The position numbers were made by a program, and so were the translations under genes. The notes under the pieces are model-generated. The model saw only the letters and a program-made list of their open reading frames with translations, was not told the DNA's origin and did no database searches. Shown here one piece after another: positions 22,857 through 41,336 of a stretch of 64,000 nucleotides of DNA. The DNA comes from an uncultured delta proteobacterium (GTDB taxonomy: Bacteria; Desulfobacterota; RBG-13-43-22), in contig CAWIRY010000091.1 in NCBI GenBank assembly GCA_963838485.1, forward strand, positions 128,658 to 192,657. Reading direction: 5' to 3'. Position 1 is the stretch's first letter, and each line of letters opens with the position of its first letter.

Positions 22857-22876
22857 CTTCCGGTACCAGCCTTCCG

Positions 22877-24745: not shown

Positions 24746-25153
24746 ATGGTGTCTGCATATATTTATTGCATGACCAGAGCCGACCTTGAAGATATGCTTG
24801 GACGATCCATAATACCCCAAGAATTGGCTGATTTTCTGGGTGTTGACCGTCGGACTATTATCAAGTATGCTTCTTACTGGGGTGGTGTGGAAGTCACACC
24901 CGGTACCTATCGGTTCTTTGAAAACAGAATAATGGAGGTCCTCAATGCCGAGCAAAATAAAGAAAAGAGGAATATCGAGATATCGGGCCAGCGTAACCAT
25001 CCAAGGTCAGACCCGGCAAAAGGTTTTCCAAGACGAGAGCAAAAGCTCTTACAAGGAGGCCCTAATTTGGGAAAAAGAAACAAAAAAAGACCTGGAGAAG
25101 GCACTATCCCAGATAAATTCGGTATCTTTGAAACTGGTTCAATGGTCCAATGA
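24746..25153 (+). CDS. Excisionase/AlpA-like HTH DNA-binding protein, copy A; the real stop is probably before the int start, since the C-terminal overlap is out of frame
   Basis: LADFLGVDRRTIIKYASYWGGVEVTPGTYRFFENRIMEVLN; the copy-B paralog is at 40695-41078. Confidence 0.55.
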   Translation: MVSAYIYCMTRADLEDMLGRSIIPQELADFLGVDRRTIIKYASYWGGVEVTPGTYRFFENRIMEVLNAEQNKEKRNIEISGQRNHPRSDPAKGFPRREQKLLQGGPNLGKRNKKRPGEGTIPDKFGIFETGSMVQ

Positions 25154-26096
25154 ATATTTAACAGAAGCTGAAAATCGATTCGTAAAGAACACCTTCCTTC
25201 AAAAGAAGGTAACGTTTAAACGATTCTTCGAGGATACTGGGTTTCAGCCTGAATTTCTGGTTCAAGATTTGACGATAACCATCTGTAGAAGTTTTCTTTT
25301 AAAACAGTCGAGGGAGAGATCAGGTTATGCCGCTAACAAGGACAGAAAAAACCTTGGAGCGGCATGGCGCTGGGGTTCTGAAAATATGGAGGGTTGGCCC
25401 AAGGGTGTTAATCCCTTCCTGTCAATTAAAAAGTATCCAGAAGAGCGACAACCGAGATATGTTCCTCCGGAAGAAGACTTTTGGAAGGTATATGACCAGG
25501 CAGAAGGTCAAGACAAGGTAATGCTGTTGACGTTCCTTCATTTGGCAGCCAGGAAGTCCGAGGTGTTTCGGATCAAATGGTCGGATGTAGATTTTCCAAA
25601 CAAAAAAATTCGCCTTTGGACCCAGAAACGCGAAGGTGGTCATAAAGAATATGATTGGTTGCCCATGACCTCGGATCTGAAACAAGCCCTGCTTCAATGG
25701 TGGCAGGAACGATTGAAACAGTCCACCATTGACAAGGAACATGTCTTTGTCTGTCTGGAAGAAGCCCCTTTTTGTGAAGAGTATTTTGGAAAGCCCTTTA
25801 AAAGAAGACAACTTTTCATGGAGCGCCTATGCACCAAAGCGGGAGTTATCCCTTTTGGGTTCCATGGAATCAGGCATTTGACTGCTTCGATTCTCTATCA
25901 AAAAGGATATCCTTTGTCAGTTATTCAAACGATCTTGCGTCATGCCAGTCCCAATACGACGGCACGCTATATACACAGTCTGGGATTGGAAGAAACAAGG
26001 GGAGCACTTGAGGAAGGTCTTAAAGGGCCAGCTCAAGTGATCGAGTTGAAGAAGGCAAAAAGTTGGATAAAAAAAGCCCCCGAGGCTCATCCCTGA
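24945..26096 (+). CDS. Tyrosine integrase, copy A (N-terminal arm-type domain, core-binding domain and catalytic domain)
   Basis: 383 aa with catalytic residues in ...FGFHGIRHLTASILYQKGYPLSVIQTILRHASPNTTARYIHSL. It is about 93% identical in protein to copy B (39752-40903, opposite strand). Confidence 0.9.
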   Translation: MPSKIKKRGISRYRASVTIQGQTRQKVFQDESKSSYKEALIWEKETKKDLEKALSQINSVSLKLVQWSNEYLTEAENRFVKNTFLQKKVTFKRFFEDTGFQPEFLVQDLTITICRSFLLKQSRERSGYAANKDRKNLGAAWRWGSENMEGWPKGVNPFLSIKKYPEERQPRYVPPEEDFWKVYDQAEGQDKVMLLTFLHLAARKSEVFRIKWSDVDFPNKKIRLWTQKREGGHKEYDWLPMTSDLKQALLQWWQERLKQSTIDKEHVFVCLEEAPFCEEYFGKPFKRRQLFMERLCTKAGVIPFGFHGIRHLTASILYQKGYPLSVIQTILRHASPNTTARYIHSLGLEETRGALEEGLKGPAQVIELKKAKSWIKKAPEAHP

Positions 26097-26164
26097 GAAC
26101 ATTTTGTGTCCTGATTTGTGTCCGAGGTTATAGAATGGAAGTTATGATTTGTAACCTTATGATT

Positions 26165-26674
26165 TTATTTGATGTCCCTAACTGAAATGAACCCCCTGTT
26201 ACCGACTTCCGGAAGCACGCCCAGGTCTTCGGCCGTGGCCCGGTTAAGCGGAATGGGTCGACCGAGAATCCACAGGGCTTTCCCCGAGAGGGGGCTTTGC
26301 TGGAGGAAAACCTCTCCGTTATCTTTTTGAAGTACCGTGAGGGACAAATCGCTCTCTATGACCATGGTTGCTGCGGTCGCGGCAAGTCCCCGGTTCTGCC
26401 TAAGCCCTCCGGCATCCTGAATCACCTGTTGAACCGTCGGCGGCTGAGAATAGCTGAGGAGACCTGGCCTTTTGACCTTACCCTTTAGTTCAATGGTTAT
26501 TCTTTTTTCGAACCGTGGATTATGAATCGCCAAGTCTGCTTTTTGGCCTAATCTCCAATATTGAAAACCTAAAAAAACAAAAATCAACAGCGAAAAAAGA
26601 AAGAGTCCTTTTTGTTGGGCCCGGGTTAATTGAGGAATGGGGTAGTGCTTGAGAGTGCTTGGCATTTTAAACAA
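26165..26674 (-). CDS. ComEA-like protein (TM anchor, SLBB domain and the start of an HhH motif), C-terminally truncated at the integrase-element junction
   Basis: KVKRPGLLSYSQPPTVQQVIQDAGGL (SLBB) and IPLNRATAEDLGVLPEVG (HhH start). The last 12 codons (GNRGFISVRDIK*) are encoded inside the sequence shared with copy B. Confidence 0.6.
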   Translation of the reverse strand: MFKMPSTLKHYPIPQLTRAQQKGLFLFSLLIFVFLGFQYWRLGQKADLAIHNPRFEKRITIELKGKVKRPGLLSYSQPPTVQQVIQDAGGLRQNRGLAATAATMVIESDLSLTVLQKDNGEVFLQQSPLSGKALWILGRPIPLNRATAEDLGVLPEVGNRGFISVRDIK

Positions 26675-26782
26675 ATTAGAGCCTCTGGCTTAATCCAAGT
26701 TTGATACTGGATACTTGATCCTGGGTTCTGGATATAGAAATCTTGGTTTTGTCCTGTATCCGGCATCCCGTATCTGTGTTCG

Positions 26783-26977
26783 TTAATCTTCCCAATGAAT
26801 ACAACTCACCGGGCAGGTTTCTATGGCCTCGTTGATTTTTTCTTCCGTACAACCAGAAAAGTTGATAACTTGTGCTTTTTCAAGGCTTTCATTTAAGACA
26901 AAGACCTGGGGACAGATCTCCACACAGCTTCCACAGCCCACGCAGTCTTCGGTTTCAATCACAGGAATGGATACCAT
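26783..26977 (-). CDS. 4Fe-4S ferredoxin (64 aa)
   Basis: CVGCGSCVEICP plus a second CTEE...CPVSC cluster. Confidence 0.8.
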   Translation of the reverse strand: MVSIPVIETEDCVGCGSCVEICPQVFVLNESLEKAQVINFSGCTEEKINEAIETCPVSCIHWED

Positions 26978-27041
26978 ACTTGATGTTGAGTTTTGAGTTC
27001 GGGTTTCGGAGTTCTAAGTAATTCTTCCTAACTCCGAACTC

Positions 27042-28638
27042 CTAACTAATCACTCCGAACTTATTTTTCTTTTCTTCCTTATACAGTTTGTAAGTAATGC
27101 TGTCCACCAGGGCCTGCCAGGAGGCCTCAAAAATATCGGTGGAGACCCCGACCGTTCCCCATTTGTCCTCCTGGTCCCCTGATTCGATCAACACCCTGAC
27201 CCGGGCGGCGGTTCCTTCCACGCTGGAGAGGACCCGGACTTTATAATCGTCTAAGCGCATCTCCTTCAGTTCCGGGTAAAAACGCTCCAAGGCTTTGCGC
27301 AGGGCATTGTCTAAGGCATTGACCGGACCGTTGCCGATGGCGGCCGTATGTTCGACCCGGCCTCCGACCTTGACCATAATGGTGGCCTCGGCCATGGGCG
27401 GCTGGTCTTCTTTGGCCTTGTGGTCCATGACCCGAAATCCCAATAATTGAAAATACCTTTTCTGAGTCCCTAAGGCCCGATTCATGAGCAGCTCGAAGGA
27501 GCCTTCGGCCCCTTCGAATTGGAAGCCCTGATGTTCCAAAACCTTAAGCTGGGAAAGGATCTTTAAGACCGCCGGATCCTTGCTGCTGACATCCAGGCCG
27601 TATCCCTTGGCCTTGGAAAGGATGTTGCTCCTGCCGGCCAGTTCCGAAATAAGGATCCCTCTGCACATTCCCCACCAACTCGGGACGGATGTGCTCATAG
27701 GTTTCCGGGTTTTTGGAAACGGCACTGACATGGATTCCTCCCTTATGGGAAAAGGCACTGGCCCCTACATAAGGTTGATATTTATTGTGACGCACATTGG
27801 CCAATTCGTTTACAAACCGCGAGACCTCGCTGATCATCCTGAGCCGAGCGGGACTCAAGACCGGCATCCCCAGTTTCAATTGCAGGTTGGGGATGATGGT
27901 ACAAAGGTTGGCATTGCCGCAGCGGTCCCCGAAACCGTTGATCGTCCCCTGGACATGGGCGATCCCTGATTCCACGGCCGCCATGACATTAGCCACCGAA
28001 CAGTCGCAGTCATTGTGGGCGTGAATCCCCAGGGGAAAGCCTTTGACTTCTTTTTTTACCGCCTGGATGATCGGGATCAAACGGCCGGGCAAGGTCCCGC
28101 CGTTGGTATCGCAAAGGACCAGGCAATCCACCTTGGAGCGCATCGCCGCCTTAAGAGTGGCCAGGGCGTATTCCGGGTTGGCCTGATAACCATCGAAAAA
28201 ATGTTCGGCGTCGTAAAAAAGCTTACTGACTTTAGGCCGGACCAGGGAAAGGGAATCTTCGATAATCCGGAGGTTTGTTTCTAAAGACACCCGTAAGGCA
28301 TCCCGAACATGAACGTCCCAACTCTTGCCGAAGATGGTGATGACCGGGGTTTGGGCCTGAAGCAAGGCCTTCAGGTTGGGGTCTTTCTCCGGTTGGGTTT
28401 TCGGATTATGGGTACTGCCAAAGGCCGCCAACCGGGCCTGTTTCAGGGAGACTTCCTTCATGGCTTGAAAAAATTCCACGTCCTTGGGATTGGAGCCCGG
28501 CCAGCCCCCTTCAATATAAGACAAGCCGAGTTCATCCAATTTTTTTGCAATTCGGATTTTATCCTCTACCGATAAATTAAAATCTTCGGCCTGGGTTCCG
28601 TCCCGAAGGGTACAATCATAGATTTCGATGGGCTTCAT
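27042..28638 (-). CDS. Citramalate synthase / 2-isopropylmalate synthase family enzyme (CimA/LeuA-like), interrupted by a frameshift near 27655-27662
   Basis: The N-terminal ORF (27544-28638) has a DRE-TIM HMGL-like domain (YDCTLRDGTQ...HAHND). The C-terminal ORF (27042-27758) has a LeuA_dimer regulatory domain. The junction reads ...PELVGNVQR | ILISELAGRS.... Confidence 0.8.
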
Positions 28639-28810
28639 GATTTTCTATTATGTTGAGTTATGGTACAAGGTACAAGGTTTACGGTACAGGGCACACGGCT
28701 CATGGTTAAGGTCTTCTATATGGTGGTGATGCTTTGGATTTTAGCCCCGCACCTTAAACCGTACACCTTACACCTCGTTCCTTGCACCTTGAACCTTTAG
28801 CCTTGCGCCT

Positions 28811-30040
28811 TTATTTGTTGATCGGTTCCTTGTCCAAATTAAAAACACTGTGCAAGGTGCGGACGGCCAATTCGGTGTATTTCTCATCGATGACACAGGA
28901 GATTTTGATCTCGGAGGTGGAAATCATCATGATGTTGATTCCTTCCTTGGCCAGGGCCGCAAACATGGTGGTGGCCACACCGGCGTGGTTGCGCATGCCC
29001 AATCCGATGATGGAGACCTTGGCGATATTTTCGTCTCCCATGACCCGTTCGGCCTTGATCTCCTTGGCCATTTTTTTGATGGTACTCATGGTTTTTTTAA
29101 AGTCGACTTTGGGGACCGTAAAGGTCAGATCGGTTAACCCTTCGGCACTGGTATTCTGGATGATCATATCCACCACCACCCCGGCCTCGGAGATGGGGGT
29201 AAAAATTTTGGAAGCTATACCCGGACGGTCCGGCACTTTGGTAATGGTAATACGGGCCTCGTTTTTATTATAGGTGACCCCTGAAACCAAGATTTTTTCC
29301 ATGCTCTTATCTTCTTGAACCACCATCGTTCCCTCCTTATCGGTAAAGGTTGACCGTACATGCACCGGGACCTTAAATTTTTTGGCGAATTCGACCGAAC
29401 GGATCTCCAGGACTTTGGCGCCCAGACTGGCCATTTCCAACATTTCTTCATAGGAGATCTTTTTCATCTTTCGGGCCTTGGGGCAGATATTCGGATCGGT
29501 CGTATATACCCCCTCCACATCGGTGAAGATTTCACAGACCTGGGCCTTTAAGGCCGCGGCTACGGCTACGGCGGTTGTGTCCGAACCGCCCCGGCCCAGA
29601 GTGGTGATATTCCCTTTTTCATCCAGTCCTTGGAAACCGGCCACGGCTACAATCTTGTCGTTTCGTATCTCCCCCATTATTCGCCGGGTATCGATCTCAT
29701 TGATTCGGGCCCGACCATAGGCATCATCGGTGGCAATTTTGACCTGATGGCCCAGAAGAGAGGTGGCCTTGAAACCCAGACTTTGGACGGCCATACAAAA
29801 CAGGGCTACTGAAATCTGTTCTCCGGTGGAGATCAGGACATCCAATTCACGGGGATCGGGATTTTCCGACATCTCTTTGGCCAGACGGATAAGTTTGTCC
29901 GTTTCTCCGGACATGGCCGACAGAACGACCACTATATCGTGGCCTTTCTTCTTCATGGCGATAACCCGTTCGGCCACATTTCGAATCTTTTCTATGGAGC
30001 CGACCGAGGTCCCTCCATATTTCTGAACAATCAAAGACAT
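28811..30040 (-). CDS. lysC: Aspartate kinase
   Basis: KYGGTSVGS N-terminus, kinase domain and two C-terminal ACT domains. The probable start is the second ATG (MSLIVQKYGG), with GGAGG 8 nt upstream. Confidence 0.9.
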   Translation of the reverse strand: MSLIVQKYGGTSVGSIEKIRNVAERVIAMKKKGHDIVVVLSAMSGETDKLIRLAKEMSENPDPRELDVLISTGEQISVALFCMAVQSLGFKATSLLGHQVKIATDDAYGRARINEIDTRRIMGEIRNDKIVAVAGFQGLDEKGNITTLGRGGSDTTAVAVAAALKAQVCEIFTDVEGVYTTDPNICPKARKMKKISYEEMLEMASLGAKVLEIRSVEFAKKFKVPVHVRSTFTDKEGTMVVQEDKSMEKILVSGVTYNKNEARITITKVPDRPGIASKIFTPISEAGVVVDMIIQNTSAEGLTDLTFTVPKVDFKKTMSTIKKMAKEIKAERVMGDENIAKVSIIGLGMRNHAGVATTMFAALAKEGINIMMISTSEIKISCVIDEKYTELAVRTLHSVFNLDKEPINK

Positions 30041-30046
30041 GAACAT

Positions 30047-30326
30047 GCCTCCTTATCTAAAATATTAACCGTCTCATTATAGTTTTGATCAGGTGAGGCA
30101 ACCTTTTCTTCCGTCTGTAGCTTTCGGGCTGGTCTTTTCTTCGGACTTATCCACGGGGGATGCTTTGCCCCCTCTGCATTCTCGCCCGCTAAAAAATCAG
30201 CGGACGAGCTGCGGTCTCCCCCGTTAATAAGTCCTTAAAAGACAACGCCCTTTCGCCAATGACTCCAGAAAAAGCAGCCTCACCTGACGGAGTCAAGGTG
30301 TTATTATTATGAGACGGTTAATAACG
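30047..30326 (-). promoter_or_regulatory. About 280-nt structured 5' leader of lysC, closed by a 13-bp and a nested 10-bp long-range helix; candidate lysine riboswitch (L-box), unverified
   Basis: ttaaccgtctcat (30066-30078) pairs with atgagacggttaa (30309-30321). tcaggtgaggc (30090-30100) pairs with gcctcacctga (30275-30285). The interior has several hairpins and GAGGC-GC, GAAAGG and CCGAAG motifs reminiscent of L-box elements. Confidence 0.4.
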
Positions 30327-30786
30327 GTTGTATCACTTTCATCCGCTGGACCATTTTACCATTAGGGCTTATTCGGATATGCCGTTCGGTTTCGTCCAGA
30401 ATCGTGAAAACAATGTCCAGCCTATCTTCCGGTAAATCTTTTATCCGTTCGGCCCATTCAATGACCGTGATTCCCGGCCCGTCAAAATATTCTTCCAGCC
30501 CGAGTTCCTCTATCTCTTCATCCAGATGAAGTCGGTAGCAATCCAGATGAAAGAGGGGCATAGGCCCCGGGTATTCGTTAATCAAGGAAAAAGAAGGACT
30601 GGCCACCTGGCCTTCGGCAATGGTCAGTCCTTTGGCCAGGCCGCGGACCAAACAGGTCTTGCCGGCACCCAGTTCCCCGTAGAGGGCAACGACATCCCCG
30701 CCCTTAAGCAGGGAAGCCAACCTTTGGCCCAGTTGCATAGTGGCTTGTTCACCTTCAACCACCTGCTCGAGAATGAACCCTTCCAA
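30307..30786 (-). CDS. tsaE: tRNA threonylcarbamoyladenosine biosynthesis ATPase TsaE
   Basis: P-loop GELGAGKT in a 159-aa YjeE-family protein. Confidence 0.85.
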   Translation of the reverse strand: MEGFILEQVVEGEQATMQLGQRLASLLKGGDVVALYGELGAGKTCLVRGLAKGLTIAEGQVASPSFSLINEYPGPMPLFHLDCYRLHLDEEIEELGLEEYFDGPGITVIEWAERIKDLPEDRLDIVFTILDETERHIRISPNGKMVQRMKVIQPLLTVS

Positions 30787-30799
30787 GACCCCAGACCTC

Positions 30800-31249
30800 T
30801 TATCGCGCCATTGAACGGACGATATCCTTCTTGCCTATTATTCCAACCAGAGTTCTTCCCTCCAGCACCGGAATGGAATGCACCTTGTGCTCGGCCATCA
30901 GGGTAGCTATTTCCTCTATCGGGGTTTCAGGGGTAACGGTTTTAACCGGTGAACTCATAATATCCAGGGCCACTACCCCGGTTATTTTTTTTAATTCTTT
31001 CTCAAATTTTTTCCCGCTTTCAAGAAAAACGATGTAACCCATGAAATTGACTACCGGGGGCCCATGAAATTTTTTGGTTTGGTCAATGATGTCGCTTTCG
31101 CAGACAATCCCAACTATCTCTTTGCTCGGGTTTAAAACAGGCACCCCGCTGATATGGTTTTCCGTCAAGGTTTGAGCTACATCAGCAATGGGCGTGTATT
31201 CCTGAACGGTAATTACTTTCTGAGTCATGATGTCTTTGGCCAGGGTCAT
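30800..31249 (-). CDS. CBS-domain pair protein
   Basis: Two CBS motifs (HISGVPVL; HSIPVL) in a 149-aa ORF. Confidence 0.8.
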   Translation of the reverse strand: MTLAKDIMTQKVITVQEYTPIADVAQTLTENHISGVPVLNPSKEIVGIVCESDIIDQTKKFHGPPVVNFMGYIVFLESGKKFEKELKKITGVVALDIMSSPVKTVTPETPIEEIATLMAEHKVHSIPVLEGRTLVGIIGKKDIVRSMAR

Positions 31250-31370
31250 GATAGGCTCCTAAAAAAAGGGTTCCAGGATTCAAGGATTCAAGGGTTAAAG
31301 GGTTAGGGGATGGAGCTGTGTCGTCCGTCGCCGAACGCCGAACCCTGAACGCTTAACGGTTTTAGACCGG

Positions 31371-32969
31371 TTATAGTTTCACCTCTCGTATCAGCGGCAT
31401 GGTTTCTTTTTCCATCCCTTCCCAAGAGCCTTTTTGAGAAATTAGGGTGGGGATCTTATCTAATAATTCCGAAGCCAGAATCCCCTGGCCGCCTCGTTCC
31501 CGGGCCAGCCAGACACCGGCCTGTCCATGCAGAAAAACCCCCAGGCAGGCGGACTGGATCAGGGACATTCCCTGGGATAAAAAACCGAGGATCAATCCCG
31601 TTAAGATATCCCCGGTGCCCCCGGCAGCCAAAACCGAGTGGGCCACGGGATTCAAGTACACTGGCCCTTCGGGATCGGCAATGACGGTCCTGGCCCCTTT
31701 CAGGACTACGACCACCCCGTATTTTTGGGAAAATGCCCGAGCTGCCTCAATCCTGTCGGCCTGGATTTCTTTAACCGGCCGGCTTAATAAGCGGGACATC
31801 TCGCCGGGATGGGGGGTAAGGACGGCCCTGCCGGCCAGGTTCTTTAAACTTTCCGGGGCCTCGGCCAAGGCATTCAATCCGTCGGCATCGATCACCATCG
31901 GGATGTTTTTTAATTGTCCCAATAAGGATTGCACTAAAGAAGATGTCCCCGGTGATTGGGAAAGCCCCGGTCCGATGGCCAGGCCTTTTTTGCCTTCCAG
32001 TAGCTTCATGATGGGACCCAGGGCATCAGGACCCAAATGCCCCGGTTCTCCTTCCGGCAGGGGTTCGGTCATGGACTCGGTCAGTTTGACTTCCATGATG
32101 GGATTCAAACTTTCCGCTATGCCCAGGGTCACCAAGCCGGCCCCGGCCCTCAAAGCCCCTAAACAGGTCATGGCCGCGGCCCCGGTTTTTCCCCTGGACC
32201 CGGCCAGGACCAGGACGTGGCCATAGGAACCCTTGTGGCCTTCAGGGTCTCTTTCTGTCAGTAAAGGGGCCAATAGATCTCTTTCCAATAATTCCACCCG
32301 TTCCCTGGGGGCCGGCCAAAGGTCCGGGGGAAACCCGATGTCTATTACGAAAAGCCTTGCTACAAAACGGCAGCCGGGAAAAAGGACCTGACCGATTTTA
32401 GGCTGGCCGAAAGTGACGGTCAGATCAGCCTTTACACAAAGACCGAGGGGCCGGCCTGTGTCGGAAGACAGACCGGAAGGGATGTCCACGGCGGCCTTGG
32501 GAATTGGAATTTCGTTCATCAGAACGATCAGGTCCCGGAAAAGGCCTTTAACTTCCTTGTCTATTCCCGTGCCCAAAAGGGCATCTACCAGGAGGTCAAA
32601 ACCGGAGACTTCCTGTTTCAAGGAGGACCGGTTTGACTTTTCGTCCAATTCGGTCAGGGGAATTTTTAACCGGTCGACCAGGCCGAGTTGATGGGCCGCA
32701 TCTCCTTTGAGTCCTTCCCTCGGACCGGCTAAATAGACCCGGACCTTAAGGCCCAGGGACTGGAAATAACGAGCCATGGCCAACCCGTCACCGCCGTTAT
32801 TCCCTTTTCCGCAAAAAATGGCTATCGACCGGGCATTGGGATACAGACACCCGATGACCTGTACCGCCCCCCGGGCGGCATTTTCCATCAGGACCTGTCC
32901 GGGCAGGCCGAAATCTTCAATGGCCTGTCGATCTAATCGTCTCATTTGTTGGGCTGTGGTCAGGATCAT
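31371..32969 (-). CDS. nnr: Bifunctional NAD(P)H-hydrate repair enzyme (epimerase plus ADP-dependent dehydratase)
   Basis: N-terminal YjeF_N (GKGNNGGDG) and C-terminal carbohydrate-kinase-like domain (GPGLS...GGTGD). Confidence 0.85.
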   Translation of the reverse strand: MILTTAQQMRRLDRQAIEDFGLPGQVLMENAARGAVQVIGCLYPNARSIAIFCGKGNNGGDGLAMARYFQSLGLKVRVYLAGPREGLKGDAAHQLGLVDRLKIPLTELDEKSNRSSLKQEVSGFDLLVDALLGTGIDKEVKGLFRDLIVLMNEIPIPKAAVDIPSGLSSDTGRPLGLCVKADLTVTFGQPKIGQVLFPGCRFVARLFVIDIGFPPDLWPAPRERVELLERDLLAPLLTERDPEGHKGSYGHVLVLAGSRGKTGAAAMTCLGALRAGAGLVTLGIAESLNPIMEVKLTESMTEPLPEGEPGHLGPDALGPIMKLLEGKKGLAIGPGLSQSPGTSSLVQSLLGQLKNIPMVIDADGLNALAEAPESLKNLAGRAVLTPHPGEMSRLLSRPVKEIQADRIEAARAFSQKYGVVVVLKGARTVIADPEGPVYLNPVAHSVLAAGGTGDILTGLILGFLSQGMSLIQSACLGVFLHGQAGVWLARERGGQGILASELLDKIPTLISQKGSWEGMEKETMPLIREVKL

Positions 32970-33078
32970 AATTAAAACCTTGGATTCAAGGGGTCCAGGG
33001 GTCCAGGATTCAAGTGAAAGGCGTTGAGATTAAAATACTTGAACCTCGAATCTTGAAATCCTTGAACCCTATTTTTGA

Positions 33079-33459
33079 CTAAATCTCAAGCACCACCACT
33101 GCCAAAGCATATCCATCCTCATCGGTCAGGGTCAAAAAACTGTTTTTAATCCCGGCCTGCATACAGATTTCCCTGGCCCGGCCTTGGAGGATCAGTTCCG
33201 GTTTGCCGAAGGCATTGGAGGTGACTTCGATATCCTTCCAATGGATTCCCTGCCGCATCCCCAGGCCAATAGCCTTGGAGAAGGCCTCTTTGGCGGCGAA
33301 ACGCATGGCCCAATAGCGTGTGGGACGGGGTTTGCCAAGGCAAAGGGCGCGCTCTTTTTCGGTAAAGATCTTCTCCTGAAATCGTTTTCCCCAGGTTTCC
33401 ATGGCCTTTTCGAGCCGGGAAATTTTAACCAAATCGACTCCGATGCCGTAAATCATCAT
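33079..33459 (-). CDS. acpS: Holo-[acyl-carrier-protein] synthase
   Basis: MIYGIGVDLVKISR...FAAKEAFSKA in a 126-aa ORF. Confidence 0.9.
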   Translation of the reverse strand: MMIYGIGVDLVKISRLEKAMETWGKRFQEKIFTEKERALCLGKPRPTRYWAMRFAAKEAFSKAIGLGMRQGIHWKDIEVTSNAFGKPELILQGRAREICMQAGIKNSFLTLTDEDGYALAVVVLEI

Positions 33460-33716
33460 TCTCCATAAAACAGGAATTCGAATTATCTATTTCTTTTATA
33501 TAACAAGCTATTATCCTGGTCAAGGAGAAACGGCAGGATTCTTTCCAAAAGCCACGAGGATGGAGCCTAAAAAAAATTTATTAGAAAACTGGATTATTTT
33601 CCGATTTATTGGTACAAATAAATTTTAAAGGAGTCCAGGAAGGCAATTTTTAATTCTCGCATATTGTCTTGAAAGAAAAAGTAATCATAAAAAAAAATTT
33701 ACCAAAGGGGGATACC

Positions 33717-35006
33717 ATGGAAAAGAAAAAAATGAAAGGGTCTGGAATCAGTCGAAGGGATTTTTTAAAGACTTCAGCCGCAGTGGGCGCGGCCGCCACC
33801 ATTACCGGTTTTCCGGCCATCTTACGCGGGGCCGCACCTAAGGAGATCATTATCGGCTCTATCCAGCCGGTTACCGGCCCTTTGCCGGATATCGGCATCG
33901 CCGCGCAGCGCGCTAATAAACTGGCCGCCGACGAAGTCAACGCCCGGGGGGGGATCAAGTCCATGGGCGAAGCCAAGTTAAAGCTCCTTCTGGGCGATTG
34001 TGAGGCCAAGGAAGAAGTGGGCCGGACCGTGGCTGAGCGGCAGATCAATGAAGGGGCGGTTTGTCTGGTAGGGCCATTTTTAAGCGGGGTGGCCATGGCC
34101 ATCGCCACCTTGGCCGAGCAACGCAATATTCCTTTTGTTATCGATGTGGCCGCCCTGGACGCCATTACCGCCAAAGGGTACAAAAATGTTTTTCGTTGCT
34201 TTGCCAAGACCGAAGCCTTCATGACCAGCATGGCCAAATACCTGGACGAGATCATCAAAGAGAAAAAGGTGACCATCAAACGGATCGCTGTCACCAATGC
34301 CGGCGATGCCTTCGGCCGGGGACAGGGGGCGTCTTTTATACAATTTGTCAAGGATAGAAAATTGCCCTTTGAAATCGTCGAACATATCGAATACCCTTTG
34401 GGCGTTAAGGACCTCTCAGCAGAAGTAGCTAAACTCAAGGCTTCTAAGCCCGACCTCCTTTGTCCCGTAGCCCGTCCCGGAGATGCCAAACTCCTGATCC
34501 GGGAGCTCTATAAGCAGCGGGTAGAATTGTTGGGCATCATCAGCCCGGGCAGCCCGGGCTGGTACGAGCCGGAATTCATCAGGGACATGGACAAGCTGGC
34601 CTATTATGTCCTGGACAACGTGCCCTGGTACAACCCCAAGAGCAAAAAATTCCAGGAAGCCAATGCCCGTTTTGAAAAACTCTATCCCGGAAAATACCTG
34701 GATTGCAATTCCGGATACTCCTACACCGCGGTGCTGATCATCGCCGATGCTTTGGAACGGGCCAAATCAACCGATCCCCAGGCCCTGCGGGAGGCCCTGC
34801 GCAAGACCCATTTCAAAGACAATCCCATGATCGGCGGGCCGGTGATCTTTGATGAAAAGGGGGATAATATCAATGCCATCACGGCCATGGTCCAGGTCCT
34901 GCCTGATCCTAATATGGATAACCGGGTCAAGGTGGTTCTGCCCAAGGAAGGGGCCCAGGCTTCTTATGTCTTCCCCTGGAAACAACTCTGGGAACGGGGA
35001 GCCTAA
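33717..35006 (+). CDS. ABC transporter substrate-binding protein (branched-chain amino acid / Liv-type, Tat signal)
   Basis: Twin-arginine signal SRRDFLKTSAAVGAAAT on a type I periplasmic-binding fold. The start is placed at MEKKKMKGSG, with AGGGGG 5 nt upstream. Confidence 0.8.
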   Translation: MEKKKMKGSGISRRDFLKTSAAVGAAATITGFPAILRGAAPKEIIIGSIQPVTGPLPDIGIAAQRANKLAADEVNARGGIKSMGEAKLKLLLGDCEAKEEVGRTVAERQINEGAVCLVGPFLSGVAMAIATLAEQRNIPFVIDVAALDAITAKGYKNVFRCFAKTEAFMTSMAKYLDEIIKEKKVTIKRIAVTNAGDAFGRGQGASFIQFVKDRKLPFEIVEHIEYPLGVKDLSAEVAKLKASKPDLLCPVARPGDAKLLIRELYKQRVELLGIISPGSPGWYEPEFIRDMDKLAYYVLDNVPWYNPKSKKFQEANARFEKLYPGKYLDCNSGYSYTAVLIIADALERAKSTDPQALREALRKTHFKDNPMIGGPVIFDEKGDNINAITAMVQVLPDPNMDNRVKVVLPKEGAQASYVFPWKQLWERGA

Positions 35007-35282
35007 TTGATTGCGGATTGCAGAATTATCGGACCATAACAAACAATCAGCACTAAGCTCTCATGCCCCTTTGGGGCGCCACGAAGAATGAAAATAACCG
35101 TAGAGGCGGGTTTTAAACCCGCCCCTACAGAGCCTCGACAAAGATTAAGGACGGTTTAAAATCTATTTTCGTACTGAACTCTCCAGAAGTAAACTATCCC
35201 CTCCCCAAGGCGGGAGGGGATAAAGGGAGGGGGAGAGGAAATTTTTGAAGATTTTTTGCCAAACTACTATGGGTGACCACCC

Positions 35283-36152
35283 ATGAATATGGATCTGGTT
35301 CTGCAATTGGCCGTGCAGGGGTTTTTGATGGGAGGGGTCTATAGCCTGATCGCCTTGGGCCTCTCCCTGATCTTCGGGGTCATGCGGGTCATCAACTTCG
35401 CCCACGGCGAGATGATGGTTTTTGCCATGTTCATCAGCATTACCCTTCTCCTCGGCCTGGGCCTTGATCCCTATCTGTCCCTGCCGATTTGTGCGGCCGT
35501 CATGTTCGGTATCGGCTATCTGGTTCAACGGGTCTTCATCAATCGCATATTGGACTTGCCCGAGGCCATGCAGGTATTGGTTCTGGTGGGCATGGCCATC
35601 ATCTTTGAAAACGGGACCTTGATGATCTGGGGGGGGAGCGATATCAGTCCCAAGACCAGCCTGGCCCTTTCCGCCATCCAACTGGGACCGTTGACCATCG
35701 ATGTCCCTCGTCTTATCGCCTTTGTTTTAGCCATTCTCATTACCTTGATCGTCATGATCTTTTTGAAGAAGACCACCATCGGTAAGGCCATCCGGGCCGC
35801 CGCCGACAACCGGTTCGGGGCCTTGATCATCGGAACCAATATTAACCGTCTCTACGGCATCTGTTTTGGAATCGGCACGGCCTGCGTGGGGGCCGCCGGG
35901 GCCCTGCTGGTGCCCTTGATGCCGGCCAAGGCCACCATGGGCGCCCCTTATACCATGATCTCTTTTGTTATCGTCATCCTGGGCGGCATGGGGAGCCTGA
36001 TCGGGGCCTTGGTCGGGGGGTTGATTATCGGGGTCGCCGAATCCCTGGGCACGGTCTTTTTGCCCAGTTCCATGAAGCAGGCGGTCAGTTTTACGATTAT
36101 GATCATTATCCTTCTTTTCCGGCCCCAGGGACTTTTTGGAGGGAAAGGATGA
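35283..36152 (+). CDS. livH: Branched-chain amino acid ABC transporter permease
   Basis: 289-aa polytopic membrane protein of the LivH family. Confidence 0.8.
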   Translation: MNMDLVLQLAVQGFLMGGVYSLIALGLSLIFGVMRVINFAHGEMMVFAMFISITLLLGLGLDPYLSLPICAAVMFGIGYLVQRVFINRILDLPEAMQVLVLVGMAIIFENGTLMIWGGSDISPKTSLALSAIQLGPLTIDVPRLIAFVLAILITLIVMIFLKKTTIGKAIRAAADNRFGALIIGTNINRLYGICFGIGTACVGAAGALLVPLMPAKATMGAPYTMISFVIVILGGMGSLIGALVGGLIIGVAESLGTVFLPSSMKQAVSFTIMIIILLFRPQGLFGGKG

Positions 36153-37120
36153 GGCGGCTTTATCTCTTCCTGGCCTTTGTTCTGGCGATCCTGCTCTTTT
36201 TGCCCACTGTGCTCAGTAATTACTGGGAGGAGATCTTTATCCTTATTTTTTACTATGCCTATCTGGGCCAGTGCTGGAACATCCTGACCGGCTATACGGG
36301 CAACATCTCCCTGGGTCATGCCCTGTACCTCGGAATCGGGGCCTATACTTCCACCCGGCTGGCCATGGTCTTTGGCCTGAGTCCCTGGGTCGGGATGTTC
36401 GTCGGGGCCTTGCTGGCCATGGCCGTCGGCCTGTTTATCGGCTATTTAGGGTTTCGCTTCGGCCTCAAAGGGGTCTATTTCGTTTTGATCACCATTGCCG
36501 TTGCCGAACTCGGTCGGTTGATTGCCTTGCACATGAACAGCCTGGGTTCTTTCATGGGGCTGTTTATCGATTTTAAACCGGGCTTTTGGAACATGCAGTT
36601 TAGGGGAAATCGGCACTATTATTACATTGCCCTGGGACTGCTCCTCTTTTCCGTGATTGTGGTTCGGGCCCTGGAGGTCTCCAAGGTAGGCCGTTATCTG
36701 GTGGCCATCCGGGAGGACGAGGACGCGGCTGAAAGCCTGGGAGTCAATACCTTTAAATACAAGATGTGGGCCATTGCCTTAAGCGCCTTTATGACCGCCC
36801 TGGGCGGAACCTTCGACGCCAATCGGATTTTTCATTTGAGCCCCGACCGGGTCATGAGTATGGGCATGTCCATTGAGATCATCCTCCGCCCGATCATCGG
36901 GGGGATGGGCACGGTTTTGGGGCCTGTCGTCGGGTCCTTTTTGATCACCTTGCCGGCCGAATGGTCCAGGGCCTACCTGTCGGAAGTAGGCCCGCCCGGG
37001 TTGCACATGGTCATTTACGGCTTTGTGCTGATTTTTGCCGTTTTCTTTTTCCCCAGGGGGGTCATGCCTTTTTTGAACAGGATTCTAAGACCGTTTTTCG
37101 TTAAAGGAAACGACCGGTGA
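36149..37120 (+). CDS. livM: Branched-chain amino acid ABC transporter permease
   Basis: 323-aa LivM-family permease; the starts and stops of adjacent genes overlap. Confidence 0.8.
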   Translation: MRRLYLFLAFVLAILLFLPTVLSNYWEEIFILIFYYAYLGQCWNILTGYTGNISLGHALYLGIGAYTSTRLAMVFGLSPWVGMFVGALLAMAVGLFIGYLGFRFGLKGVYFVLITIAVAELGRLIALHMNSLGSFMGLFIDFKPGFWNMQFRGNRHYYYIALGLLLFSVIVVRALEVSKVGRYLVAIREDEDAAESLGVNTFKYKMWAIALSAFMTALGGTFDANRIFHLSPDRVMSMGMSIEIILRPIIGGMGTVLGPVVGSFLITLPAEWSRAYLSEVGPPGLHMVIYGFVLIFAVFFFPRGVMPFLNRILRPFFVKGNDR

Positions 37121-37842
37121 ATTTGTTAACCATAGAGGAGGTAGGAAAAAATTTCGGCGGTCTTCGGGCCTTGAATGATATTTCCCTGCTGATCAATTCC
37201 CGGGAAATAGTGGCCGTCATTGGCCCGAACGGCGCCGGGAAGACCACCTTGTTCAATTGTCTGACCGGATTTCTTTCCCCGGACAGAGGCCGGGTTTCAT
37301 TTCAAGGGCAATCGGTCTTGGGTTTGAAACCCCATCAGGTCTGCCGTCTGGGGGTGGTGCGGACCTTCCAGATCGTCAAGCCCTTTCTGGAATTGTCGGT
37401 TTTAGATAATGTCATCGTGGCCGCTTACAACCGGCGGCCCTCTCTGGCCGAGGCGACCCGAAAGGCCAGAGAAGTCATTGCCTTTGTGGGCCTGGATGAT
37501 AAACGTTCGGCCCTGGCTAATGAATTGACCTTGCCTCACCGTAAACGTCTGGAACTGGCCCGGGCCCTGGCCACCGAACCCACCCTCCTCATGCTCGACG
37601 AGGTTATGGCCGGCATCAATCCCACGGAAACCGATACCCTGATCAAGCTGATCCAAGAGATCAATGAACAAGGGGTGGCCATCCTTATGATCGAGCATGT
37701 CATGCGCGGGGTTATGGCCTTGTCGCAACGGATTGCGGTCCTCAACTTCGGGGAAAAGATCGCCGAGGGATTGCCGGAAGAGGTGACCCAAAATCCCTTG
37801 GTGATCGAAGCTTATTTGGGAGAGGATTATAAACCGTGCTGA
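37117..37842 (+). CDS. livG: ABC transporter ATP-binding protein
   Basis: Walker A GPNGAGKTT and signature/Walker B LLMLDEVMAGIN. Confidence 0.85.
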   Translation: MNLLTIEEVGKNFGGLRALNDISLLINSREIVAVIGPNGAGKTTLFNCLTGFLSPDRGRVSFQGQSVLGLKPHQVCRLGVVRTFQIVKPFLELSVLDNVIVAAYNRRPSLAEATRKAREVIAFVGLDDKRSALANELTLPHRKRLELARALATEPTLLMLDEVMAGINPTETDTLIKLIQEINEQGVAILMIEHVMRGVMALSQRIAVLNFGEKIAEGLPEEVTQNPLVIEAYLGEDYKPC

Positions 37843-38540
37843 AGGTGGAAAAGGTCGATGTCTTTTACAGGGATTTGCTGGCCCTGCGCGGTATTTCCCT
37901 GGAGGTAGCCGAGGGAGAGATCGTCACCGTCATCGGTTCCAACGGGGCCGGGAAGTCCACGATGATCAAAACCATCTCCGGCATGCTCCGGGCCCGCAGC
38001 GGTTCCATCACCTGGTACGACCGGCCCATCACTTCTTGTTCCACTTCGGATATCGTCGCTATGGGGCTCATCCAGATCCCCGAAGGCCGGCAGCTTTTTC
38101 CCTCCATGTCGGTTTTGGAAAATTTGGAATTGGGGGCCTTGAATTCCAAGGCCCGTAAAGACAAGGCGGAAAACCTGAAAAAAATTTTTAATCTTTTTCC
38201 CCGTCTGGAGGAAAGAAAAGTGCAGACCGCCGGCACCTTGTCCGGCGGGGAACAACAGATGCTGGCCATCGGGCGGGGTCTGATGTCCAAGCCCAAGATC
38301 CTCATGTTGGACGAACCTTCATTGGGTCTGTCCCCGATTTTAGTTAAGACCATCTTCGATATCATCCGGCAAATCAATGGGGATGGGACCACGATTCTTT
38401 TGGTGGAACAAAACGTCCACCATGCCTTGCGCATGGCCCATCGGGCCTATATCCTGGAAAACGGGGAAATCGTCATGCACGGCCCGGCCCAGGATCTGAT
38501 GCAGAACGACCACGTTTGCCGGGCCTATCTGGGGTTATAA
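37836..38540 (+). CDS. livF: ABC transporter ATP-binding protein
   Basis: Walker A GSNGAGKST, signature LSGGEQQM and Walker B ILMLDEPS. Confidence 0.85.
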   Translation: MLKVEKVDVFYRDLLALRGISLEVAEGEIVTVIGSNGAGKSTMIKTISGMLRARSGSITWYDRPITSCSTSDIVAMGLIQIPEGRQLFPSMSVLENLELGALNSKARKDKAENLKKIFNLFPRLEERKVQTAGTLSGGEQQMLAIGRGLMSKPKILMLDEPSLGLSPILVKTIFDIIRQINGDGTTILLVEQNVHHALRMAHRAYILENGEIVMHGPAQDLMQNDHVCRAYLGL

Positions 38541-38629
38541 AGGGTTCCCCATCACAACCCTTTCTTGCCGTCGAAGGTCCATATTGAATCATTCAATTTC
38601 ATGTCAAGCATAGATAGGAGCTCAGCACT

Positions 38630-39046
38630 TTGGAAATAACGCCGATTATCGTTGAACAGGGCAATCAGAATTCTTTATACCAGACTATGGGCATTCGCCT
38701 CGAAGAGGCCGTCGACGGGAAGGCCCGCACCATCTTAAACCCCCGGACCGAAGTCTGTTGGCCCTTTTCGGACCAGCCTCACGGAGGCGTTCTCTTTACG
38801 ACCATGGATACCTCCATGGCCTGGGCCGTACTCTCCGTGGTGGAGCCGGGCCACGGCTGTTCCACCATTGACTTCAACATCCAGTATCTGGCTCCGGCCA
38901 ATAAAGGTCCCTACCAATGTCAGGCCTGGATAACCCACCGGTCCGGCCGAATGGCCTTTTTGCGGGCTGAAATCAGGGATTCTCATCATTCTTTGTTGGC
39001 CAACGGCCAAGCCGTATTCCGAATCATCAAAAGGCCGATTATTTAG
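38630..39046 (+). CDS. Hotdog-fold thioesterase (PaaI-like)
   Basis: 138 aa containing HGGVLFTTMDTSMAWAV. Confidence 0.65.
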   Translation: MEITPIIVEQGNQNSLYQTMGIRLEEAVDGKARTILNPRTEVCWPFSDQPHGGVLFTTMDTSMAWAVLSVVEPGHGCSTIDFNIQYLAPANKGPYQCQAWITHRSGRMAFLRAEIRDSHHSLLANGQAVFRIIKRPII

Positions 39047-39264
39047 GAGGGAAATACGGTTCAAGGTTCAGGGTTCAAGGATTCCAGGATTCAAGGGTTC
39101 AAGGGTTTTAATTCCCAAGCCTTTCACTTAAATCCTCGACCCCTTGACTCCTGGAATCCTTTTCTTTTGACCTTGGTCCAGCTTTTATTTTCCGAGCCAC
39201 CAAGGCAAAATCACGGGTTCCGATCGATAAAGTTGGGAGACTTCCTGGTCAGTCGGCCGGTTTA

Positions 39265-39660
39265 TCATTTTGAGGATGGACCGCCATAGCGATTGTTTAG
39301 AAAAGAACTGATCTGATTTAGATTGGTTGGATTGTCAAAGGCCGCTGTTTTGTTACCAAGCTGGTTATCCAATTGCCTCTGAACAGCTTCGGACAGCACC
39401 CATCCGAGAGGAAAGCCCATTTTATTTTTGCATAGCCCGAAGTGCAGGAAGTTTTCCTGGCCCACATGCCACATCACGGTTTCGCAAGCATAGACGGCCC
39501 GGGCGTTGCGGGTGTTCAACATGGCCCTCACCGGAGAAAGGGCTTCGTTGAGAAAGGGCCCCGGGCTGGATGCCTTGTCCTTGTCTTTAGTGGCCAGACG
39601 GATAGTCTTATCTCGGGGATCGACCGGTTCATTGCTGATGTGGACGGTAACAGGGTTCAA
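39265..39660 (-). CDS. Hypothetical ORF whose start lies inside the int-element terminal sequence; possibly the 3' part of a gene disrupted by integration
   Basis: TTG start inside the shared core (ttgaaccctgttaccg); no recognisable domain. Confidence 0.3.
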   Translation of the reverse strand: MNPVTVHISNEPVDPRDKTIRLATKDKDKASSPGPFLNEALSPVRAMLNTRNARAVYACETVMWHVGQENFLHFGLCKNKMGFPLGWVLSEAVQRQLDNQLGNKTAAFDNPTNLNQISSFLNNRYGGPSSK

Positions 39661-39751
39661 ATTATGTTAGGGGCATCAAATAAAATCAAAAGGTTACAAA
39701 TCATAACCCCCATTTTATAACCTCGGACACAAATCTGGACACAAAATGTCC

Positions 39752-40903
39752 TCAGGGATGAGCCTCGGGGGCTTTTTTTATCCAACTTTTTGCCTTCTTC
39801 AACTCGATCACTTGAGCTGGCCCCTTAAGACCTTCCTCAAGTGCTCCCCTTGTTTCTTCCAATCCCAGACTGTGTATGTAGCGTGCCGTCGTATTGGGAC
39901 TAACATGACGCAGGATCGTTTGAATAACCGACAAAGGATATCCTTTTTGGTAAAGTATCGAAGCAGTCAAATGTCTGATTCCATGGAACCCAAAATGGTT
40001 AACATTTGCCTTTGTACACAGGCGTTCCATGAAACGATGCCTGGCCGTAAAGGGCTTTCCAAAATGCTCTTCACAAAAAAGGGCTTCTTCTAAACAGACA
40101 AAGACGTGCTCCTTGTCAATGGTCGACTGTTTCAATCTTTCTTGCCACCATTGAAGCAGGGCTTGTTTCAGATCCGATGTCATGGGCAACCAATCATACT
40201 CTCTATGACCACCTTTGCGTTTCTGGGTCCAAAGGCGGATTTTATTGTTTAGAAAATCAACATCCGACCATTTAATTCTAAACACCTCGGACTTCCTGGC
40301 TGCCAAATGAAGGAACGTCAACAGCATTACCTTGTCTTGACCTTCTGTCTGCTCATATACCTTCCAAAAGTCTTCTTCCGGAGGAACATATCTCGGTTGC
40401 CGCTCTTCTGGATACTTTTTGATGGACATGAAGGGATTAACATCCTTGGGCCAGCCCTCCATATTTTCAGAACCCCAGCGCCATGCCGCTCCAAGGGATT
40501 TTCTATCCGTATTAGCGGCGCAACCTGATCTCTCCCTCGACTGTTTCAAAAGAAAACTTCTACAAATGGTTATTGTCAGATCTTGAACCGGAAATTCAGG
40601 CTGAAGCCCCGTATCTTTAAAGAATCGTTCAAACGTTACCTTCTTTTGATGGAACGTATCTTTAACGAACCTATTTTCAGCCTCAGTTAAATATTCATTG
40701 GACCATTGAACCAATTTCAAAGATACCAAACTTATCTGGGATAGTGCCTTCTCCAGGTCTTTTTTTGTTTCTTTTTCCCAAATTAGGGCCTCCTTGTAAG
40801 AGCTTTTGCTCTCGTCTCGGAAAACCTTTTGCCGGGTCTGACCTTGGATGGTTACGCTGGCCCGATATCTCAATATTCCTCTTTTCTTTATTTTGCTCGG
40901 CAT
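39752..40903 (-). CDS. Tyrosine integrase, copy B (inverted paralog of 24945-26096)
   Basis: 383 aa, about 93% identical to copy A, with the same HGIRHLTASILYQ...RYIHSL catalytic region. Confidence 0.9.
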   Translation of the reverse strand: MPSKIKKRGILRYRASVTIQGQTRQKVFRDESKSSYKEALIWEKETKKDLEKALSQISLVSLKLVQWSNEYLTEAENRFVKDTFHQKKVTFERFFKDTGLQPEFPVQDLTITICRSFLLKQSRERSGCAANTDRKSLGAAWRWGSENMEGWPKDVNPFMSIKKYPEERQPRYVPPEEDFWKVYEQTEGQDKVMLLTFLHLAARKSEVFRIKWSDVDFLNNKIRLWTQKRKGGHREYDWLPMTSDLKQALLQWWQERLKQSTIDKEHVFVCLEEALFCEEHFGKPFTARHRFMERLCTKANVNHFGFHGIRHLTASILYQKGYPLSVIQTILRHVSPNTTARYIHSLGLEETRGALEEGLKGPAQVIELKKAKSWIKKAPEAHP

Positions 40904-41078
40904 TGAGGACCTCCATTATTCTGTTTTCAAAGAACCGATAGGTACCGGGTGTGACTTCCACACCACCCCAGTAAGAAGCATACTTGATAATGGTCCGGCG
41001 GTCAACACCCAGAAAATCAGCAAGTTCTTTAGGGGTCAGGCAGCGTCCGTATACATTTTTTAGAAATTCAGCTGGCAT
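40695..41078 (-). CDS. Excisionase/AlpA-like HTH protein, copy B
   Basis: It is identical to copy A from ELADFLGVDRRTIIKYASYWGG onward and has a different N-terminus (MPAEFLKNVYGRCLTPK). Confidence 0.55.
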   Translation of the reverse strand: MPAEFLKNVYGRCLTPKELADFLGVDRRTIIKYASYWGGVEVTPGTYRFFENRIMEVLNAEQNKEKRNIEISGQRNHPRSDPAKGFPRREQKLLQGGPNLGKRNKKRPGEGTIPDKFGIFEIGSMVQ

Positions 41079-41084
41079 ATTTAT

Positions 41085-41336
41085 TTACAAAACTAAAGTC
41101 CTAGGACCTCTTCGGCGCCCTCTTTTCTGTTTTTTGCCATCAGAAGGTTTTAGGGCTTTCTCGTGCTTGGCCGCTTGATCGATTGCCTCTATTATGATTG
41201 TTTCAGGACGACGACGGAAACCGGTAGCTTGTTTAATAGTGAGCCTTCCTTTTCCTTGTCCGTTGCCCATTATCTGCTTTGTACAGAGGAAACTTCTCAA
41301 TTGCTCATTCGCGGCATTTTGGATATAATTCATCAT
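41085..41336 (-). CDS. Hypothetical basic protein (83 aa)
   Basis: ORF only; the C-terminus is arginine-rich (KKQKRGRRRGPR). Confidence 0.3.
   Translation of the reverse strand: MMNYIQNAANEQLRSFLCTKQIMGNGQGKGRLTIKQATGFRRRPETIIIEAIDQAAKHEKALKPSDGKKQKRGRRRGPRTLVL

Follow-up and report, generated by a model that had tools for sequence, protein, structure and literature searches.

Elements that interrupt genes can act as regulatory switches, as do the comK prophage of Listeria, the skin element in sigK of Bacillus subtilis and the nifD element of Anabaena. The integrative and conjugative element (ICE) ICEBs1, which has a lambda-type, tRNA-targeting integrase, resides in tRNA-Leu (PMC3715440). 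Its secondary-site insertions occur within genes and excise poorly (Menard and Grossman 2013, PMC3715440), and secondary-site integration is also described for phage lambda (Shimada 1975, as cited in PMC8637289). In the Thermococcales, the integrase (Int) of pTN3 catalyses inversion between inverted attachment (att) sites (Cossu et al. 2017, PMC5495485). Here we analyse a stretch of 64,000 nucleotides (nt) of contig CAWIRY010000091.1 from an uncultured delta proteobacterium (hereafter the window), in which two related tyrosine integrase modules, A and B, lie in inverted orientation around a block of core genes, and in which a comEA-like gene and a patatin-like gene (pat) are cut. The processes concerned are of kinds already known (lambda-type tRNA-island integrases, secondary-site insertion and integrase-bounded inversion), and we regard the case as instructive, not unprecedented.

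Junctions of element B and the split patatin-like gene

The patatin-like gene, which encodes 737-739 amino acids (aa) when intact, is split by copy B. Its 3' fragment of ~125 codons occupies 39265-39644 on the minus strand, and its 5' fragment lies at 58750-60671 on the plus strand, with homology to relatives from 58814. The two parts are contiguous in four relatives (L001, L081, L082 and L113; ~90% nucleotide identity), all of which lack both integrases and have pat uninterrupted. In L113 the gene is called as several open reading frames (ORFs), like many genes there, yet it is uninterrupted at the insertion site. The order in L081, L082 and L113 is DJ-1, glpK, major facilitator superfamily (MFS) transporter, intact pat, thioesterase and liv, all on one strand. 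In L001, a metagenome-assembled genome (MAG) of ~91% DNA identity that was found by a genome scan with Nnr, the 271 nt ahead of the block of core genes match window positions 60401-60671 (plus strand).

Both B junctions carry the same 10 bp, TCCACATCAG, which the intact site has in each of the four relatives as well. They form the core of attR-B at 39635-39644 (minus strand) and of attL-B at 60662-60671 (plus strand). The first junction (J1), toward pat 3', reads ...GAACCCTGTTACCG TCCACATCAG CAATGAACC..., and the second (J2) reads ...GTCGTCA TCCACATCAG GCATCCATACCACC...; the intact pat site reads ...GTCGTCA TCCACATCAG CAATGAACC..., with GTGGTCA and CAATCAACC in L001 and L081. Beyond J2 lies the P' arm of B (60672-60790, plus strand), which starts with GCATCCATACCACC and carries a box TTTTAGCCCACATTAGAGTCAT at 60709-60730 and arm-type repeats at 60754-60774; the ORF of the pat 5' fragment stops inside it, at 60714. 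This arm is unique within the window and is shared with the attP of a related element, L102, where it comes directly after the P arm. Across the site, the intact pat sequence is ...GTCGTCATCCACATCAGCAATGAACC... and the reconstructed attP-B is CCCTGTTACCGTCCACATCAGGCATCCATACC. The pat site resembles the end of the P arm for several bases past the 10-bp core, as would be expected of a look-alike site. J1 and J2 are therefore the reciprocal attR and attL products of recombination between attP-B and the pat site.

The attR and attL of B are on opposite strands, 21 kb apart. Because the pat halves are reversed, the same 10 bp stand at both junctions and the P' arm is at the far one, the segment 39645-60671 is inverted relative to the ancestral order of L081, L082 and L113, with att-precise ends at 39644/39645 and 60671/60672. 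The inverted 21 kb holds the module of the B integrase (IntB), insertion sequence (IS)-rich DNA (41049-48232), a GDSL lipase gene, DJ-1, glpK, the MFS transporter gene and pat 5'. Insertion of a circle would give att sites in direct orientation; the observed topology is that of inverted sites recombined on one molecule.

The best explanation of 39645-60671, held with confidence slightly above even, is an integrase-catalysed inversion between attP and a pseudo-attB. A chromosome-resident attP-B would have recombined, via IntB, with the look-alike pat site in inverted orientation; one step would flip the segment and leave attR and attL as an inverted pair, and the reverse of the same IntB reaction would restore pat. 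The layout is that of an invertible switch of the Fim or shufflon type, with short inverted sites (the 10-bp cores) flanking 39645-60671 and a recombinase gene, that of IntB, inside. As with the comK prophage, skin and the nifD element, an element splits a gene that precise site-specific recombination can rebuild, but rebuilding pat needs inversion, not excision. We found no evidence for regulation or for an alternative state of pat. The case shares with pTN3 Int an integrase from a tRNA-targeting element, ends at opposed att-type sites and the co-residence of related elements. It differs in that pTN3 is archaeal, its inversions end in pairs of tRNA genes and its integrase also carries out low-specificity, homology-dependent recombination, whereas the window comes from a bacterial host and at each end an attP-derived arm meets an ORF.

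An assembly artefact, that is, a chimera or a misjoin at the repeats in a genome that truly has simple insertions or none, seems highly improbable to us. The source is probably a MAG, the relatives with the same core genes are all MAGs or metagenome contigs, the region is rich in repeats and a cimA-like gene is frameshifted. A misjoin at the integrase repeats cannot, however, give the observed positions of the pat halves; the junctions are att-precise and carry the same 10 bp, and both the P arm and the P' arm have counterparts in independent elements of other samples. An exact copy of the ORF at 63051-63638 is also present on a 1-kb contig of an independent run.

Integrase modules A and B

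The original prediction described two modules of ~1.38 kb, ~93% identical and inverted, each with an AlpA/Xis-like helix-turn-helix (HTH) protein, an integrase and a conserved tail of roughly 100 nt. A repeat search gave an inverted pair at 24800-26195 and 39653-41048 (1396 nt, 92%), whose ends were then set by aligning both copies with their flanks: 24800-26204 (plus strand) and 39645-41048 (minus strand), with 116 differences in 1405 columns (91.7% identity). This alignment, which had been proposed as a check, upholds the predicted pair at a slightly greater length. As the pair is the sole long inverted repeat found by the search of the 64 kb, chance is excluded. Each copy consists of an HTH gene, an intact 383-aa tyrosine integrase gene and a tail of 108 nt (26097-26204 in A), and the first 15-20 codons of the HTH ORF are unlike between the copies, both as predicted.

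The integrases, IntA (24945-26096, plus strand) and IntB (39752-40903, minus strand; a 100% match to database protein P0001, recorded on a 210-kb contig), have a catalytic domain that matches PF00589 (E=2e-22, 80.1 bits against a Pfam cut-off of 27.1) and the integrase family phrog_1 (E=4e-43). The residues R203, K228, H307, R310, H333 and Y342 are unchanged in IntA, IntB and six relatives in an alignment, and the HxxR..H..Y portion aligns with XerH (PDB 5jjv). Residues 1-185 match no Pfam domain at the default threshold (E <=0.001); the N-terminus is highly conserved in the family. Synonymous divergence (dS) between the two integrase genes is 0.27 and the ratio of nonsynonymous to synonymous divergence (dN/dS) is 0.15, so that both are under purifying selection. 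Because dS is 0.27, A and B are not recent duplicates; they are the integration modules of two related, distinct elements.

The HTH genes lie at 24746-25153 (A, plus strand) and 40695-41078 (B, minus strand). The functional part of the A gene, a candidate excisionase or regulator, spans ~24746-24950, and the remainder overlaps int in another frame. The HTH ORF matches HTH_17 weakly (E=7.8e-5; 23.3 bits, under the Pfam cut-off of 27), as it does phrog_66, 'excisionase and transcriptional regulator' (E=0.0025). The predicted full-length integrase and HTH gene were thus found, but the Pfam search gave no AlpA match for the HTH ORF. Its position directly 5' of int, kept in the related elements L083, L084 and L112, fits a recombination directionality factor of the excisionase type. 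The HTH ORF stays open for ~70 codons within int in the other frame (24945-25153; 40695-40903; 10001-10210 in L083), and in the 76%-identical relative L083 it ends where it does in A and B. The overlap may be real or a by-product of the A-rich start of int. An 83-aa ORF of element B (41085-41336, minus strand), 5' of its HTH gene, is common to copy B and the closest relative, L112, and is lacking in copy A. Positions 83-1842 of L112 align to window 41393-39642 at 83%.

Identity between the repeats is uneven. The two longest stretches without a mismatch measure 119 and 86 bp, the mismatches are clustered (P=0.002 under uniform placement) and, in comparison with L112 as outgroup, stretches where A=B alternate along the repeat with others where A=L112 or B=L112, a mosaic that suggests past gene conversion. 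These features, with the 91.7% identity, are also what can be said for homologous recombination between the 1.4-kb repeats as the source of the arrangement, through either one element split in two or two elements with the 13.4 kb between them flipped. A flip of that block by homologous recombination between A and B is plausible and may well happen, yet it does not account for the split genes, since a crossover there leaves all tail-to-gene junctions (three att junctions) as they are. If it is undone, comEA is still cut and pat 3' is still upstream, not downstream, of pat 5'; the dS of 0.27 shows that the copies are not halves or recent duplicates of one element. These junction positions led us to reject the view that a crossover between A and B split the genes, and as an account of the locus as a whole we consider it very unlikely.

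The original prediction had offered two related elements or one element split by a chromosomal inversion between the repeats. The second option fails, because undoing the crossover between A and B rejoins neither gene. The first holds in that the elements are related and distinct, but neither is a simple insertion: the far end of B is 21 kb off on the opposite strand, and the far end of A is outside the window. A chromosomal inversion is indeed seen, but its ends are the attR and attL of B.

The interval between the modules and the comEA junction

The block between the copies (26205-39644; 13,440 nt) runs from the 5' part of comEA to the 3' part of pat. Searches by blastn against L001, L081 and L113, together with Pfam, identify it as chromosomal, and its internal order is colinear with that of the integrase-free relatives. 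L001 is colinear with the window from 39644 down to 26204, exactly the stretch between the repeats, and has an integrase at neither end. The 13.4 kb between A and B is therefore the ancestral interval from comEA to pat. It carries comEA-like, cimA/leuA-like, lysC and tsaE genes and a gene for a CBS protein, followed by nnr, acpS, a liv ABC transporter and a thioesterase gene. The G+C content (GC) is ~50-55% in the block and 32-46% in the outer flanks, which are IS-rich. Gene content, GC and IS thus bear out the earlier description of housekeeping DNA between the copies and accessory DNA outside them. A single fixed arrangement in long reads, together with the same arrangement in relatives that lack the integrases, had been named as what would refute the original prediction; the outcome is halfway, in that the relatives have the same internal order without the integrases but different connections outside the block.

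The cimA/leuA-like gene (27042-28638, minus strand) consists of two overlapping ORFs (27042-27758 and 27544-28638), where L001 has a single ORF of 529 aa; the gene has either become a pseudogene by frameshift or been misread in sequencing.

Characterised homologues of ComEA bind incoming DNA during natural transformation. The comEA-like gene of the window (26165-26674, minus strand) is truncated at its junction with element A (26204/26205): the helix-hairpin-helix C-terminus is missing and the gene ends in 12 element-derived codons. In L001, the single relative that reaches comEA, the gene is an intact ORF of 201 aa, of which the 40 codons beyond the junction encode the helix-hairpin-helix part. 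No 3' piece of comEA was found anywhere in the window, nor is there a direct repeat of the junction or a second P' arm in the window that would close element A.

Three other origins of the arrangement were considered and rejected. Had the far ends of A and B (attL x attL), or homologous stretches inside both elements, recombined to give an inversion, pat 5' would in either case lie on the side of A, where it is not found. A composite transposon does not fit flanking units that encode integrases and not transposases, nor a block that keeps its ancestral internal order while its outer partners are displaced.

Relation to tRNA-Glu-targeting integrases

The integrase has ~1,470 database relatives, for ~20 of which we recovered the DNA. 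In 17 of these, with integrases 60-80% identical, a tRNA-Glu gene (anticodon CTC or TTC) has its 3' end ~100 nt from the end of int. Their tails have a terminator hairpin, two copies of TTGTGTCC 4 bases apart (the arm motif TTGTGTCC-N4-TTGTGTCC common to the relatives) and, ~80 nt further, a copy of the tRNA 3' half that runs on into the true tRNA gene. The crossover point is fixed by L086 and L087, metagenome contigs that agree at every one of 11,268 nt and then diverge exactly within the anticodon loop. The usual target of the family is thus the anticodon loop of tRNA-Glu. The divergence at 11268/11269 has tRNA-Glu beyond it in one contig and unrelated DNA in the other, and the pair shows one element in two states, from two samples.

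L102 has an intact attP, in which the P and P' arms meet at the loop position. Its P' arm is homologous to window 60672-60790, starts with GCATCCACACCACC and holds a box TTTTAGCCTACATTAGAGTCAT and GTGTCC repeats, the second set of this attP. Positions 1-4720 of L102 carry tRNA-Glu(TTC), an adjoining minus-strand integrase gene and then an HTH-int module with this attP, which lies in inverted orientation to tRNA-Glu, 4.4 kb away and beside the second integrase; a Prim-Pol/DnaB-type primase-helicase follows. This could be the state before an inversion, or else a composite island.

Because they have the same layout as the tails of the tRNA-Glu-integrated relatives, the tails of A and B are the P arms of attachment sites: 26097-26204 on the plus strand for A, with arm-type repeats at 26103-26123, and 39645-39751 on the minus strand for B, with repeats at 39725-39745. 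The arm motif of the window, TTTGTGTCC-N4-TTGTGTCC, occurs at 26103, 39745 (minus strand) and 60754, three sites where 0.15 would be expected in the window. The repeats are 81-83 nt from the core on P and P' arms; the motif is conserved in the relatives and present on both arms of the L102 attP, and we infer that the integrase would bind at these repeats. With repeats on both P and P' arms, the window integrases appear to have the arm-site layout of heterobivalent (lambda-type) integrases. They share this layout with lambda-type tRNA islands and ICEs, as they do a small HTH gene directly 5' of int; the ~17 relatives of the window integrases further resemble those elements in an attP with a tRNA 3' part and in a crossover in the anticodon loop.

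A and B depart from these elements in that they lie in protein-coding genes, in that the window has no tRNA, and in that their tRNA half no longer folds as a T arm and the sequence at the loop position has been replaced. In an alignment of the tails with those of relatives, the decayed stretch resembling the tRNA-Glu 3' half spans ~26170-26204 (plus strand) in element A and ends in CCCTGTTACCG. The half is degenerate in both copies and its T-stem is no longer complementary; its end, CC(C)TGTTACCG, is one base from CCCGGTTACCG of tRNA-Glu(TTC). RNA searches of the 64 kb gave no tRNA, tmRNA or Rfam RNA gene, and such a gene as the insertion target within the window was rejected. A and B are thus related to the tRNA-Glu clade by integrase (60-85% identical), HTH gene and both arms (the P' arm is that of L102), while they lack both the proximity of int to tRNA-Glu and a usable tRNA 3' half. 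Cargo in common with the tRNA-integrated relatives was not found: tblastx gave only the HTH-int module and generic AAA and transposase matches. The integrase and P' arm were not found in viral contigs, and nothing in the sequence points to a phage origin.

L112, whose integrase is 85% identical and which was recovered from the sample that also gave L082, is the closest relative; its P arm is equally decayed and ends in CCCTGTTACCG. Past this arm come GCCTCGATGA and then probably the antisense strand of a candidate TusA-like gene. A, B and L112 make up a sub-lineage with a decayed tRNA 3' half in which the end CC(C)TGTTACCG is kept, and which sits within protein-coding genes: comEA, the patatin-like gene and, probably, a tusA-like gene. 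The sequences at the overlap position, ACTTCCGGAA in A, TCCACATCAG in B and GCCTCGATGA in L112, are all different and have nothing but the C at the second base in common with the canonical GCGTGA(G/A)AGG; the 10-bp core takes the position that the anticodon stem-loop has in ordinary family members.

Both B junctions carry the target version, so a conservative tyrosine-recombinase exchange would require an attP-B that already matched pat. We infer that the overlap sequence of these elements is replaced over time, plausibly when one takes along the sequence of a previous secondary site. Secondary-site insertions of ICEBs1 and lambda are similar in that the site is not the primary one, lies inside a gene and partly resembles the normal att, and in that poor excision and trapping are expected. 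They differ in that here both B junctions carry target sequence with no heteroduplex footprint, the B junctions are mutually inverted, and three members of the sub-lineage have three unrelated overlaps. A bolder reading is that the sub-lineage has escaped tRNA-Glu, keeping its arm and core-binding sequences and taking a 7-10-bp overlap from its last target, which would let it recombine with look-alike sites inside genes, and that the two chromosome-resident modules work as a natural recombinase-mediated cassette-exchange and inversion system that flips the 21 kb and the 13.4 kb and so reversibly switches pat (and comEA) off and on; we consider this unlikely.

Origin of the inversion

Two accounts of the inverted segment deserve most weight. 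For the integrase-catalysed inversion at pat, the intact attP of L102, inverted with respect to tRNA-Glu, indicates that resident attP sites do exist in the integrase family. Several points weigh against it. A single arrangement is seen. The model needs a chromosome-resident attP-B and an overlap already changed from the anticodon loop to the pat sequence, neither of which was observed, and the reconstructed attP-B 32-mer had no exact match in metagenome contigs. The inner boundary of the accessory DNA (~48.2 kb) adjoins an IS21 truncated to istB and a duplication of 255 nt, and the Na+/H+ exchanger, DUF1667 and GlpA-like genes that one relative has upstream of GDSL/DJ-1 are absent from the window, which indicates that other rearrangements acted here.

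In the other account, a circle of B inserted in pat with attL and attR in direct orientation, and a later IS-mediated or illegitimate inversion, with breakpoints inside element B and just upstream of GDSL, flipped pat 5'-attL and its neighbours; the far end of A would have been lost in another, separate rearrangement. We rate this as rather unlikely, though it is the most serious competitor. At least five IS types are near in the window; the truncated IS21 (istB only, 47462-48148) lies exactly at the boundary of accessory and ancestral DNA, beside the duplicated GDSL 5' fragment; and the absence of the ancestral upstream genes from the window and of an intact attP-B from the metagenome contigs also speaks for it. 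It needs, however, two extra independent rearrangements, each breaking inside an element, where the integrase model yields attL and attR as an inverted pair without further events. Within the window, the segment is not surrounded by IS copies in inverted orientation, and the account leaves unexplained why both modules face the same ancestral block. Comparison of the genes upstream of GDSL/DJ-1 did not separate the two leading models: among the relatives, one contig ends there and the other has genes without a counterpart in the window.

If integrase-catalysed inversion took place at pat, copy A most likely arose likewise at comEA. This is an extrapolation from B, as the partner junction is outside the window, and it counts among the points against the model. 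The predicted partner of A is a P' arm in reversed orientation (TTTTAGCCYACATTAGAGTCAT / GCATCCAYACCACC, reverse-complemented) that meets the 3' end of comEA; in L001 the corresponding 3' end lies at 16590-16724 and pfkA comes next (16590-18000 for both). Both events together would amount to an exchange of two cassettes, and the two modules could also recombine with each other by homology.

Neighbouring features

An IS cluster (41464-48232) adjoins copy B. It includes an IS4-like element (41464-43214) with 18-nt terminal repeats, a Sel1-repeat gene, a DruA-like (Druantia) gene (44824-45720) whose 3' end is overlapped by an ORF for an IS66-family transposase (45458-47098), and istB (47462-48148) without istA. 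The duplication next to it is direct (48233-48487 and 49700-49955; 255 nt, ~92%) and comprises the upstream and 5' region of the GDSL lipase gene; the copies are 1.2 kb apart with a DUF5615 ORF between them, and the first abuts the truncated IS21.

In the AT-rich DNA left of A, an unrelated tyrosine recombinase of 223 aa (17786-18457, plus strand; PF00589, E=1e-22) resembles IntA only across the catalytic box. A sigma-54 activator gene (23400-24575, plus strand) starts inside the AAA+ domain and encodes neither a receiver nor a sensor domain. An IS3 element (21847-23329) lies just upstream of it, and the gene is probably cargo that has lost its 5' end.

Intergenic arrays with 8-nt phasing (AGGATTCAAGG / GGGTTCAAGG) occur at 31259-31312, 32981-33035, 39062-39123 and 55315-55377 and also in L081, and look like a family of the repetitive extragenic palindromic (REP) type. 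A 32-nt palindrome, GTAGGGGCGGGTTTTAAACCCGCCCCTAC, follows two unrelated genes at 2331-2362 and 35100-35131 and is terminator-like or REP-like.

Implications

The locus offers a clean natural example, with four empty-site controls, of a bacterial integrase family that has apparently left its tRNA target. Two chromosomal genes, comEA and a conserved patatin-like gene, are cut, and an inversion ends at exact attachment sites. For annotation, an integrase that lies beside core genes in such genomes is not necessarily the border of a simple island. If the integrase catalysed the flip, resident modules can reorganise chromosomes and toggle genes with no element entering or leaving, a form of integrase reshaping for which the experimental record comes mainly from the Thermococcales.

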